Sequence record: NC_004928.1
Reading direction: 5' to 3' (one strand)
DNA from: Escherichia phage RB69
Length of the DNA: 64,000 nucleotides
Shown here: positions 2,368 to 42,941 of the stretch, piece by piece
How positions within the stretch are numbered: the first letter of the stretch is position 1
How the letters are laid out: the number at the start of each line of letters is the position of its first letter
Made by a program: the position numbers and the translations under genes
The notes under the pieces: model-generated
The model's database searches: none
Seen by the model: the letters and a program-made list of their open reading frames with translations, nothing else
What the model was told of the DNA's origin: nothing

Positions 2368-3330
2368 TTATTTCCAAGTCAGTTCGCAGGTCAGTTGAAG
2401 AAGCATATACATAACATGTAATTCAATATTACTTGCTAGTCCATGAAACTTATTATTTTCGCCTGCAATTTCGTAAAGCGAAATAATACTTTTACCAGGT
2501 GCAACTTGGTCATAACATTCTGAAACTAATTTATCGATGAACCATGAATAATCTGCAGCATATTTTGGAGCTAATGCACGAAGTTGTTTGATATCTTTGT
2601 TCTTCATTGCTTCGATAACATCAGAGACTGTGCCACGGTCATTAGTTACGATAGACAGAATACCTGCATCAAGAACACCTTTAGACGAGTACTGGTCTAA
2701 TTGGCCAATTGTACGACGAAAGTCCGGGAAGTTCTTTTTAACCAGAGCTGCAACAACTTTCATATCAGCGATTTCGATATTTTCATTCTTACAGATTTCA
2801 ACCATACGATGAATCATTTTCTTCATCATCGAGATTTTATCTTCTTCGGTTGGACGTCCGAATTCGATAACTCGACAACGACTACGTAACGGTTCAATAA
2901 TTCCATCGATGTTGTTAGCAGTAATAATAATAGAACAGTTACTAGAGAATTCTTCCATAAACGTACGAAGGTGACGTTGTGATTCGGCGAGGCCACTACG
3001 GTCAAATTCATCAATAACAATAACTTTCGGCTTGCCTTCCATTGAGACTGAACGAGCAAATGCAGTTAACGGACCGCGTACAAAATCAATTTTACAATCA
3101 GAACCGTTGACGAACATCATTTCAGCGTTGATATCGTTACATAATGCTTTTGCCACGGTTGTTTTACCGGTACCAGGAGATGGAGAGTGTAAAATAATAT
3201 GAGGAAGTTTTCCTTTAGATACTAAAGACTTGAATGTTTCATGGTCATACGCAGGCAGAATACATTCGTCAATGGAAGAAGGACGATATTTCTGTTCTAG
3301 AATGTGTTCTTTGGAATTGATAGTAATCAT
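2368..3330 (-). CDS. 44: clamp loader large subunit gp44 (AAA+ ATPase)
   Basis: 320 aa; Walker A SPGTGKTT; strong similarity to T4 gp44. Confidence 0.9.
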
Positions 3331-3405
3331 GTAATTTTCCTCATTATCATTAAACTGGAGGATTTCTCCTCCATAATCGTACTACATTAAACGTAAAGCT
3401 TTGAC

Positions 3406-26724: not shown

Positions 26725-27306
26725 TTATAACAACCCTGTCAAATCGTTCCAATGCTTCCGGCATAATGACACGTATCTATCGGTATCACCAATTTCAATT
26801 TGACTGCCATCTGTAATTGGAAGTCCGTCTTCCGTGACTCTAGCTACCATTGTGGCCTTTTTACCGCAATGACAGACACCTTTAAGTTCAACAAGCTTAT
26901 CGGCAATAGCCATTAATGCTTGAGAACCTTCAAATAGATTACCTTTAAAATCTGTTCGTAGTCCGTATGCCATTACCGGCACATTGTATACGTCAACAAT
27001 ACGACTAAGTTGATACACCTTTTCAGTAGTTAAGAACTGAGCTTCGTCAACAAATACACAGTGAATATCCTTTTGTGCTGCAGCCCATTTATAGAATTCA
27101 AAGATATCCATGTCTTTTGTAATTATATTGGCGTCCTGACGAATACCAATACGAGAGACTATTTCACCTTTTGAATCGCGAGTATCAATAGCCGGTTTAA
27201 GAACTAATACACCCATGCCACGTTCTTTATAGTTATGTGCGGCAGTAAGTAATGAAGCAGACTTACCAGCGTTCATAGCGGCATATGTAAAAATTAAACT
27301 AGCCAT
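26725..27306 (-). CDS. tk: thymidine kinase
   Basis: MASLIFTYAAMNAGKSASLL...VFVDEAQF near-identical to T4 Tk. Confidence 0.9.
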   Translation of the reverse strand: MASLIFTYAAMNAGKSASLLTAAHNYKERGMGVLVLKPAIDTRDSKGEIVSRIGIRQDANIITKDMDIFEFYKWAAAQKDIHCVFVDEAQFLTTEKVYQLSRIVDVYNVPVMAYGLRTDFKGNLFEGSQALMAIADKLVELKGVCHCGKKATMVARVTEDGLPITDGSQIEIGDTDRYVSLCRKHWNDLTGLL

Positions 27307-27315
27307 AAGAGTCCC

Positions 27316-27498
27316 TTATAGTGAATTCACGTAGTCAATGAGTTCTTGTTCTTTCCTGTCAAATGATTCCATCAATGCGTGATATTCTTCATCTGTTAAA
27401 GGAGCATATTCATCGTACGCATTGGTGGCTGCTTGTTCATCCAATAGGTCATGGATAAGTTCGAACAGTTTAGCTTTCTCTTCTTTAGTTAATTTCAT
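27316..27498 (-). CDS. hypothetical protein
   Basis: 60-aa acidic ORF. Confidence 0.4.
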   Translation of the reverse strand: MKLTKEEKAKLFELIHDLLDEQAATNAYDEYAPLTDEEYHALMESFDRKEQELIDYVNSL

Positions 27499-27989
27499 TT
27501 AGGTTCCCAATCAACAATCACAATTTCTAGTTTAGTGGAATACGTATCTAAAATCTCTTCGATGACATCCCAGTTTCCGCCACCGATACCTGCACCAATT
27601 CTTGGCATATAAATTACAGGCTTTGTTATCTTATTCTTTCCGAATTCATTTAATTCTATTATACAATTCATTAAAGCAGAGTACTCAAAATTAGGTCCCG
27701 GCTCAAACTGCGTATAAAGATTAAAGCAATAAGCTTTATGGGTCTTAAAATATTTTTCATAAACCGAATAAGTCCCGAGTTTAGACTCGTCTCCAAATTC
27801 GGTTTGAAGTTTATCGGCTTCCAGAATTTTTGGATAAGCCTTTGCTAATTGTCCTGCCACACCACCGCCCATTGTATGAAAACAATTACATCCATGAGCA
27901 ATATTATTACCTTTAGAAAACAGGGCGACAATATCGCCCTTGATATAGTTTTTAATCACTTGCTGCAAGTCCTCTAGTATAAGAGTCAA
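27495..27989 (-). CDS. macro-domain-like protein (putative ADP-ribose binding/hydrolase)
   Basis: GDIV...HGCNC...GGGVAG and IGAGIGGG motifs typical of macro domains; 164 aa. Confidence 0.5.
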   Translation of the reverse strand: MTLILEDLQQVIKNYIKGDIVALFSKGNNIAHGCNCFHTMGGGVAGQLAKAYPKILEADKLQTEFGDESKLGTYSVYEKYFKTHKAYCFNLYTQFEPGPNFEYSALMNCIIELNEFGKNKITKPVIYMPRIGAGIGGGNWDVIEEILDTYSTKLEIVIVDWEPK

Positions 27990-28299
27990 CTAGACGGTCC
28001 ACCATAGAATTGCATGCTGCCTTATCTTTAGGTTCCGCCACCGAGCATTCTAATATTTGCCATTTTTTATAGTATCTTTTAATTAAGGTAGACGCCTTGA
28101 ACCTACTAGACGCCCCATCTTTTTCTCCGTCTTTATACGCATATAACAATTTTTGTGAAAAATCTACTTTACACTCTTGACTTTTACCGCAATAATCAGA
28201 CGCCGTTCTGTTTGTATACTCCGTTACATCAGTATATGTAGTATTAGCAAGAGCGTTAAATGAAACCAAGCCAACTATTAAAGCCAACATTTTGGTCAT
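27952..28299 (-). CDS. secreted protein (vs position)
   Basis: 115 aa with N-terminal signal peptide; same length as T4 Vs but identity not verified. Confidence 0.4.
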   Translation of the reverse strand: MTKMLALIVGLVSFNALANTTYTDVTEYTNRTASDYCGKSQECKVDFSQKLLYAYKDGEKDGASSRFKASTLIKRYYKKWQILECSVAEPKDKAACNSMVDRLVDSYTRGLAASD

Positions 28300-28846: not shown

Positions 28847-29305
28847 CTAGATTTTAATCACTGCTTTAGAAGCTTTTCCTGGTAGTCGTTTACTGTTAAT
28901 AATAGCCATTCTGCATTGAAGAGTCTTCATTTTGAATGCTGGATTTTCGCGACAAACTGTAAGTCCTAACCAAAGATTTCCATCAGTTATTTCTAAACGG
29001 CCCGGGCGATATTCGACACCTTCGACAAAATCTTCATCAACATCTGGACGTGCCGGCATTGATAAAAATTCTGCAACTTCTTTAACATGATTTTTTACTT
29101 TATGAAATAATTCAAAAACGTAATTCTCATCTATTTCTCTCTGGATGGCACGATCTAAGAGATGTTGAGAATACTTGATATGAAAGCCTGGTAGTCCAAG
29201 AGACTTTGCAGCATCTTTTATACTGGCATTTATTTTGCGGAACTCCGTTTCAAAGATTCGACGGAGTTTATTACGGCGGATAAAAACGTCTGAATTGATA
29301 GTCAT
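28847..29305 (-). CDS. regB: endoribonuclease RegB
   Basis: MTINSDVFIRRNKLRR... resembles T4 RegB; start trimmed to ATG with SD AGAGGAGA. Confidence 0.75.
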   Translation of the reverse strand: MTINSDVFIRRNKLRRIFETEFRKINASIKDAAKSLGLPGFHIKYSQHLLDRAIQREIDENYVFELFHKVKNHVKEVAEFLSMPARPDVDEDFVEGVEYRPGRLEITDGNLWLGLTVCRENPAFKMKTLQCRMAIINSKRLPGKASKAVIKI

Positions 29306-29323
29306 TTTGATTTCTCCTCTAGT

Positions 29324-29363
29324 TGACAGGTCTATAGTAACACAACTAGAGGAGAAGTAAACT
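29324..29363 (-). promoter_or_regulatory. early promoter cassette upstream of regB
   Basis: GTTTAC ... TATAGA/GACAGGTCTATAG element. Confidence 0.45.
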
Positions 29364-29583
29364 ACTTTATTGATAAAATGAGAGTTAAGGCCCAAGATTC
29401 TTTAGATACTATATTGGCGAAGTGCCTCATCTCTTCGATTTGGCGACGACGCTGGTCAGCATAGTCTTCTTCGCCTTCTTCCTTACAATCTTCAAGGTCT
29501 TCTTCAAGATACTTTAAGTATTCACTACAAATTTTGTTGACCTTTTCCTGGAAGTCCAACAACCCAGTAATAGTAGAAGCCAT
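29362..29583 (-). CDS. hypothetical protein
   Basis: 73-aa ORF. Confidence 0.4.
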   Translation of the reverse strand: MASTITGLLDFQEKVNKICSEYLKYLEEDLEDCKEEGEEDYADQRRRQIEEMRHFANIVSKESWALTLILSIK

Positions 29584-42782: not shown

Positions 42783-42861
42783 TGGTCGAGACAGAAGGAT
42801 TCTAACCTTCAACCTACGGATTAGAAGTCCCCGTTGCTCTATACAATTGAGCTATGCCTCG
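42783..42861 (-). tRNA. tRNA-like gene, Arg(UCU)-like anticodon context with non-canonical loop
   Basis: 7-bp acceptor stem, D-stem GCUC/GAGC, T-arm GAAGG-UUAGAAU-CCUUC, encoded CCA; anticodon arm only folds with a 9-nt loop. Confidence 0.4.
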
Positions 42862-42867
42862 AATATA

Positions 42868-42941
42868 TGACCCAGACCAGATTCGAACTGGTAACCTTTC
42901 CCTTATGAGGGGACTGCTGCTAACCGTTGAGCTACAGGGCC
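42868..42941 (-). tRNA. tRNA-like gene, CAU anticodon context (Met/Ile), imperfect D-arm
   Basis: T-arm ACCAG-UUCGAAU-CUGGU, acceptor stem with one U-U mismatch, loop CUCAUAA. Confidence 0.35.

Follow-up and report, generated by a model that had tools for sequence, protein, structure and literature searches.

The RB69 orthologue of T4 tk.4 (adfM) encodes a macrodomain protein with a glutamine-type active site

Introduction

A small minus-strand gene precedes the thymidine kinase gene (tk) region of RB69-like phages, and the question it raises is what its product does for the phage. We analyzed this gene within a 64,000-nt stretch of Escherichia phage RB69 DNA (NC_004928.1), here termed the window, to whose first letter all positions refer. 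The window is ~98% identical to PhAPEC2, 348Ecol098PP and others, and belongs to Mosigvirus (RB69-like). An earlier reading of the sequence, made without database searches (the sequence-only reading), had proposed that the open reading frame (ORF) at 27495–27989 encodes a macrodomain-like protein next to tk, and that such a protein might reverse ADP-ribosylation, for example by DarT-type defences. Here we identify it as the Mosigvirus orthologue of T4 tk.4, which has been renamed adfM (anti-DarT factor, macrodomain), and we examine how its product is likely to work. Residue numbers refer throughout to the 154-amino-acid (aa) protein that begins at a GTG codon.

Results

The gene is the orthologue of T4 tk.4

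The T4 Tk.4 protein (NP_049723.1, 155 aa) matches the RB69 product over its length, with 128 of 153 residues identical (84%) in a gapless alignment (E 1e-102). Gene order agrees as well: vs–tk.4–tk.x–tk is kept in T4, Mosigvirus, Mosugukvirus, Marfavirus and Roskildevirus, and holds also at the PM2, PYps32T, F48 and Cronus loci. The sequence-only reading suggested that T4 has no homolog. This was wrong, and the novelty it implied disappears, because T4 tk.4 is the orthologue. The T4 record has long annotated tk.4 as 'phosphatase; contains A1pp phosphatase motif'. By tblastn, relatives occur in 2,794 of 50,697 phage records, where they are labelled phosphatase, Poa1p-like, macro domain protein or hypothetical. 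Macrodomains were reported in 41% of the myoviruses surveyed in one study (PMC9503650).

The T4 orthologue is known to counter DarTG2

T4 lacking both adfA and adfN was found to be still DarTG2-resistant, and a further factor was predicted (PMC11825919). A preprint on HIDEN-SEQ (November 2025) describes a screen of T4 transposon insertions on a host carrying DarTG2; tk.4 was the sole significant hit, the only T4 gene depleted on that host, and a clean T4 tk.4 knockout became DarTG2-sensitive, the gene being renamed adfM (bioRxiv 10.1101/2025.11.20.689424). From structural similarity to DarG, its authors infer enzymatic removal of ADP-ribose from DNA. Thus T4 has, in effect, already been put through the plaque assay on DarTG-carrying hosts that the sequence-only reading called for, in that the knockout was sensitised, and reversal of DarT-type ADP-ribosylation has genetic support from an orthologue with 84% identity (bioRxiv 10.1101/2025.11.20.689424). 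The anti-defence role of adfM is already known, and the RB69 copy is an unremarkable orthologue of that gene.

The name AdfM has also been given to gp104 of phage PhiKZ (Cell Reports 2026; PMC13309987). In vitro, gp104 strips an oligonucleotide of the ADP-ribose that DarT2 attaches, and it also rescues cells from the toxin (PMC13309987). The passages available from the PhiKZ paper and from the HIDEN-SEQ preprint do not mention each other's protein.

The product is a macrodomain of the ALC1/TARG1/DarG-like class

Three lines of evidence uphold the macrodomain assignment: the sequence profile, the predicted fold and the conservation of pocket residues. The similarity is well beyond chance. Against Pfam Macro (PF01661) the protein scores 30.1 bits, above the gathering score of 22 (E 5e-7; profile positions 2–117 of 118), so the profile check that could have overturned the proposal supports it instead. 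Sequence search of the PDB returned Bt_1257 (8e-11), yeast Poa1p (2e-9) and SCO6735 (8e-5), with DarG macrodomains and TARG1 at ~1e-3. PHROG 335 ('phosphatase') was also matched (E 1.6e-65). The predicted structure has the three-layer alpha/beta/alpha macro fold. Fold comparison gave figures of 18.3 for Bt_1257, 17.9 for Poa1p, 17.5 for M. tuberculosis DarG, 17.0 for Thermosipho DarTG and 16.9 for TARG1, versus at most 13.7 for the next macrodomain class. The model thus places the tk.4 product in the ALC1/TARG1/DarG-like class, not in the MacroD, viral or PARG class.

All four motifs named by the sequence-only reading (GDIVALF, HGCNC, GGGVAG and IGAGIGGG) are present in the translation. Both Gly-rich loops, which line the ADP-ribose diphosphate site, align with those of TARG1, Bt_1257 and SCO6735, and the conserved Asn is present as well. 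Specifically, GGGVAG aligns with MGAGIA of TARG1 and GWGKGF of Bt_1257, and IGAGIGGG with IGCGLDRLQW of TARG1 and IGCGLAGG of Bt_1257 and SCO6735.

Glutamine occupies the position of the catalytic lysine

We counted conservation in 121 homologues of the tk.4 product. N80, Y82 and Q84 are invariant (121/121), and Lys at position 84 occurs in none of the 121. N25 is found in 119 and H22 in 118 of these proteins, and G33, A35, G122 and G124 are likewise invariant. G8 is present in 114, and position 9 is Asp in 88 and Asn in 32; from general macrodomain knowledge, the Asp at this position in GDIVALF may contact adenine.

In profile alignments made with hhalign, Q84 falls on K84 of TARG1, on the Lys of PhiKZ gp104 ('PTK') and on Gln85 of SCO6735 and Bt_1257; the TARG1 sequence was checked against PDB chains, and the SCO6735 numbering was checked too. 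Positional equivalence of DarG K80 (T. aquaticus), TARG1 K84 and SCO6735 Q85 has been published (PMC9411070). G126 sits where TARG1 has D125 (hhalign), and by alignment H22 and N25 are H24 and N27 of SCO6735, N25 being also N23 of PhiKZ gp104.

Mutational data exist for several of these positions. SCO6735, which has neither the Lys nor the Asp, efficiently hydrolyses thymidine-linked ADP-ribose (dT-ADPr) on DNA and rescues cells from DarT; its Q85A variant is inactive, N27S shows reduced or lost dT-ADPr-DNA hydrolase activity, and G128E, in Gly loop 2, loses activity (PMC9411070). For PhiKZ gp104, N23A reduces activity (PMC13309987). The SCO6735 authors proposed a water-mediated mechanism (PMC9411070). 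By analogy, the chemistry of T-even AdfM is likely to be that of SCO6735, because an invariant Gln stands where DarG, TARG1 and PhiKZ AdfM have the catalytic Lys. This Gln-type active site is the sole point that goes beyond the literature consulted; it is mechanistic, a minor addition, and leaves the reported biology unchanged. It does mean that the inactivating mutants to choose are Q84A or N25A, not substitutions of a Lys.

Bacterial relatives are free-standing genes

A scan of one genome per species yielded 399 bacterial relatives, and we examined the loci of 80 of them. Most are free-standing genes of ~150 aa with the NxYTQ motif, and such free-standing relatives are widespread, in Rhodobacteraceae, Verrucomicrobia, Desulfobacter, Hyphomicrobiaceae and others. 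DarT2 was not found in the 80 loci by tblastn with P. aeruginosa DarT2 as the query (best E 0.79, a chance match). Among 82 same-strand adjacent ORFs analyzed with Pfam, housekeeping functions predominate, with four NADAR proteins and one ARH-type ADP-ribosylglycohydrolase. No DarT is among 25 of the 54 Pfam families in these neighbours, a set that includes every family found in at least two of the 82 ORFs and leaves most single-member families outside. On these two grounds, chance DarT2 matches only and neighbours without a listed DarT, we rejected the idea that the bacterial relatives are DarTG antitoxins. They could instead be toxin-less de-ADP-ribosylation cassettes. For the phage gene, descent from free-standing cellular macrodomains that 'repair' ADP-ribosylated DNA would fit these sequence data better than capture of a DarG antitoxin.

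Translation probably starts at GTG 27959

The minus-strand ORF that prompted this study spans exactly 27495–27989, as reported, and was listed from a TTG codon, giving 164 codons. The true start is probably the GTG at 27959 rather than the TTG at 27989. This preference rests on the extent of homology, on alignment with T4 and on the annotations of four relatives. Homology to relatives begins only at residue 11 of the listed ORF. In the DNA alignment, the ATG of T4 tk.4 falls on the window GTG, downstream of a conserved GAGGA that is a putative ribosome-binding site. The equivalent start codon is annotated in four more distant phages, where it lies such that the end of the upstream gene is overlapped by 4 nt. 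On the same three grounds the TTG start was rejected. Codons 1–10 of the ORF as listed fall within the 3' end of vs, and the segment from 27960 to 27989 is probably not translated as part of the macrodomain protein.

In phage 348Ecol098PP, a near-identical relative, the macrodomain gene is annotated as just 378 nt (locus 2996–3373) with an internal Met start, leaving an 80-nt gap after vs. Here the GTG start was apparently missed.

Gene neighborhood

Coordinates of tk.4, its motifs and other features of the window are given in Table 1. On the minus strand the genes run regB, vs.1, vs, tk.4, a tk.2 homologue, tk, rI.1 and rI. The vs stop codon (27952–27954) lies just inside the tk.4 start, such that vs and tk.4 overlap by 8 nt, and the tk.2 homologue overlaps the tk.4 stop by 4 nt. 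The sequence-only reading put the gene next to tk, but the tk.2 homologue separates the two. T4 has the same gene order plus tk.3 and tk.1, no counterpart of which was found in the window.

Table 1. Coordinates of tk.4, its sequence motifs and other features in the RB69 window
Feature	Position	Strand	Remarks
tk.4/adfM orthologue	27495..27959	minus	GTG start; 154 aa, ~17.3 kDa; stand-alone macrodomain protein
In-frame upstream extension of listed ORF	27960..27989	minus	No homology before ORF residue 11
GAGGA, Shine-Dalgarno-like	27970..27974	minus	10 nt upstream of GTG; conserved in alignment with T4 and 348Ecol098PP
GDIVALF	27918..27938	minus	First strand and helix of fold; conserved G-D/N
HGCNC	27882..27896	minus	Holds H22 and N25
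GGGVAG	27852..27869	minus	Gly-rich loop 1 of ADP-ribose pocket
NLYTQ	27708..27722	minus	Strand ending in Q84
IGAGIGGG	27576..27599	minus	Gly-rich loop 2, diphosphate-binding loop
8-bp GC-rich hairpin (AGGGCGATATTGTCGCCCT) followed by GTTTTCT	27922..27940	minus	In codons 7–13; from terminator scan; predicted dG -13 kcal/mol
vs (valyl-tRNA synthetase modifier)	27952..28299	minus	Upstream neighbor; PHROG 1256, E 5e-35; 67% identical to T4 vs
tk.2 homologue	27316..27498	minus	Downstream neighbor; 60 aa; Pfam DUF7438, E 1e-16; PHROG 653; 48% identical to T4 tk.2
tk (thymidine kinase)	26725..27306	minus	Pfam TK, E 7e-57
regB	28847..29395	minus	Listed from TTG, 182 aa
tRNA-Arg(tct) and tRNA-Met(cat), adjacent	42783..42941	minus	ARAGORN and Rfam agree

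tk.4 behaves as an exchanged allele cassette

Between T4 and the Yersinia phage PYps32T, both of Tequatrovirus, nucleotide identity is 90–100% in the flanks (vs on one side, and DNA beyond about +490 on the tk.3 side), yet just 36–80% inside tk.4. Comparison of the window with T4 gave the reverse pattern, with identity mostly 74–88% in tk.4 (68% in one 50-nt window) versus 60–80% in vs. By tblastn, Tequatroviruses carry at least two classes of tk.4 allele, ~84% and ~58% identical to the window protein. Given that T4 and PYps32T diverge inside tk.4, and that the window is closer to T4 there than across vs, the gene shows the behaviour of an allele cassette that has been exchanged, which would not be surprising for an anti-defence gene. 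This is a minor addition to known biology.

A terminator scan flagged a GC-rich hairpin early in the gene (Table 1). It coincides with the left edge of the divergent tk.4 cassette, and the record of phage fPS-65 annotates a terminator under the match. T4 and PYps32T share the hairpin exactly, at identical codons, so that no covariation is possible, and it is absent from PM2, F48 and Cronus. These data do not support a conserved RNA element or terminator.

Other observations in the window

The regB gene, like tk.4, was listed from a TTG. Its tblastn match to T4 DNA runs from residue 11 and extends upstream of the annotated T4 regB start, and a relative's regB is annotated as 459 nt. The true start is probably an internal ATG (MTINSD...), judging from these alignments. 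Apart from the two adjacent tRNA genes, which lie far from tk.4, Rfam and tRNA scans gave no other RNA-family match in the window. As for vs, the HIDEN-SEQ preprint reports it as the T4 gene most strongly depleted in M9-glucose versus LB, which hints at a conditional role for this valyl-tRNA synthetase modifier (bioRxiv 10.1101/2025.11.20.689424).

Discussion

We think it probable that the tk.4 product is a Gln-type macrodomain that enzymatically reverses the thymidine ADP-ribosylation of single-stranded phage DNA by DarT2. The protein would be made from the early-gene strand, alongside vs and tk. Its substrate would be the mark that DarT2, the toxin of DarTG2, places on single-stranded phage DNA, namely ADP-ribose attached to thymidine. 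Hydrolysis of the ribose–base bond would restore replicable DNA, and the abortive-infection defence would then fail, with the tk.4 product acting in effect as an orphan antitoxin. In the active site, the conserved N25 would hold Q84, which replaces the catalytic Lys, and the reaction would be Lys-independent and water-mediated, as in SCO6735. We infer that dT-ADPr DNA is an enzymatic substrate of the RB69 protein and likewise of T4 Tk.4.

Several points weigh against this view. The DarTG2 evidence for T4 is genetic only and comes from a preprint. The DarTG2 requirement is a T4 result, and our literature search found no data on the DarTG2 resistance of RB69-like phages. Protection need not be purely enzymatic, since catalytically dead SCO6735 still inhibits DarT by binding (PMC9411070). 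The residues with which SCO6735 positions DNA, and its long loop, are not conserved in the phage family, so DNA recognition must differ. Finally, macrodomains are promiscuous, the family has long been annotated as an ADP-ribose-1''-phosphate (Appr1p) phosphatase, and a comparative study argues that soluble derivatives of ADP-ribose are the main targets of phage macrodomains (PMC9503650).

A different view of the protein is in line with the historical 'A1pp phosphatase' label: it could be an Appr1p phosphatase or a processor of other soluble forms (O-acetyl-ADP-ribose, ADP-ribose signals), clearing small molecules that arise from RNA repair or from NAD-consuming defences. We regard this as very unlikely. 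In T4 the phenotype is specific to DarTG2, whose toxin modifies DNA (bioRxiv 10.1101/2025.11.20.689424). Three positions of Poa1p have been mutated in PDB entries. Of these, H23 (H22 here) alone is conserved; at S30 the phage protein has T29 (Thr in 75 of the 121 homologues; Leu, Val or Ser in others), and at F152 it has G126 (Gly or Ala). Poa1p has Ser at the invariant Gln of the phage family. To our knowledge, T4 RNA repair by Pnkp and Rnl1 leaves no 2'-phosphate, and hence there is no obvious source of Appr1p.

The main substrates might instead be ADP-ribosylated proteins or RNA, such that the enzyme trims the marks made by phage Alt, ModA and ModB or reverses other host ADP-ribosyltransferase defences. 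Tevenvirinae encode several ADP-ribosyltransferases. Proteins with Glu/Asp-linked ADP-ribose are further substrates of TARG1 and SCO6735, the nearest characterised relatives, and TARG1 acts on nucleic acids with phosphate-linked ADP-ribose too (PMC9411070). Against this, among the defences reported for tk.4, the T4 screen gave a phenotype only with DarTG2 (bioRxiv 10.1101/2025.11.20.689424), and T-even phages with tk.4 are still sensitive to the mRNA ADP-ribosyltransferase CmdTAC (PMC11618068). T4 Alt and Mod modify arginine. We know of no macrodomain that cleaves that linkage. As the main function, this too is improbable, to much the same degree as action on soluble ADP-ribose.

Least likely is that DarT2 is neutralised mainly by binding, the protein serving as a stoichiometric antitoxin mimic while the DNA mark is left in place: dead SCO6735 Q85A, DarG K80A and TARG1 K84A do all inhibit DarT in vitro, SCO6735 most strongly (PMC9411070), but the tk.4 product has no DarG C-terminal DarT-binding domain, and the (near-)invariance of N25, Q84, G122 and G124 in phages and in bacterial relatives without a DarT partner points to selection for catalysis. 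Activity on protein or RNA and binding of DarT2 may well exist alongside hydrolysis of the DNA mark instead of replacing it.

Regarding origin, we offer a tentative scenario, possible rather than probable. Tk.4-type AdfM may be a second class of anti-DarT2 macrodomain, recruited independently, not from DarG but from free-standing bacterial proteins of the Gln type (SCO6735-like; occasionally beside NADAR or ARH). It would be Lys-independent and water-mediated, its alleles would be swapped between phages as a cassette under arms-race selection, and its substrates might be wider (protein or RNA ADP-ribose) than those of DarG and PhiKZ AdfM. The existence of two AdfM branches and the Gln-type site both affect how evolutionary origin is read. 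In practical terms, RB69-like phages carry the anti-DarTG2 macrodomain of T4, which helps to predict which therapeutic or model phages escape DarTG2-bearing E. coli.

How, then, does the protein compare with known macrodomain systems? It lacks at least one defining feature of each of DarG, TARG1 and the long-loop SCO6735 subclass, and we rejected membership in all three. Poa1p, as noted, has Ser at the Gln84 position, and it has Phe at that of G126. The K84/D125 catalytic dyad of TARG1/OARD1 is replaced by Q84/G126. DarG (PDB 5M31/5M3E/5M3I, 7OMU; NCBIfam NF048014) is the only model matched in NCBIfam and PADLOC, through its macrodomain part only (positions 4–148 of 338 and 4–145 of 329, respectively), and the NCBIfam score of 30.7 bits falls far below the 250-bit equivalog cut-off. 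The C-terminal DarT-binding domain of DarG is absent from the 154-aa protein, and Q84 replaces its catalytic Lys80. Whereas darG has darT adjacent, tk.4 lies between vs and tk.2.

SCO6735 and Bt_1257 (PDB 5E3B, 2FG1, 2AFC) are ~26–30% identical to the RB69 protein and have the same His-Asn-Gln arrangement as the phage family. SCO6735, however, is a cellular rather than a phage gene. It has a long mobile loop after the Gln, where the phage family is 6 residues shorter (hhalign gap), and its DNA-positioning K34 and K89 are absent from the phage family, which has Gly, Ala or Ser at the K34 position.

PhiKZ gp104, too, is a stand-alone macrodomain protein by which a phage counters DarTG2, and its N23 aligns with N25. 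Yet the relationship is distant: pairwise BLASTP aligns 23 residues (E 0.002), and identity in the profile alignment is 19%. The chimallivirus protein is DarG-like, of the Lys type ('PTK'), and is imported into the phage nucleus (PMC13309987). By sequence, then, the two proteins called AdfM belong to different macrodomain branches.

Closest by far is T4 Tk.4, 84% identical along the whole length and near-equal in size (155 versus 154 aa); its gene likewise sits between vs and tk.x. It too has Q84, N25, H22 and both Gly loops. The differences are small: GGGVAG in RB69 versus GSGVAG in T4, IGGGNW versus IGKGNW, and a GTG in place of the ATG start codon.

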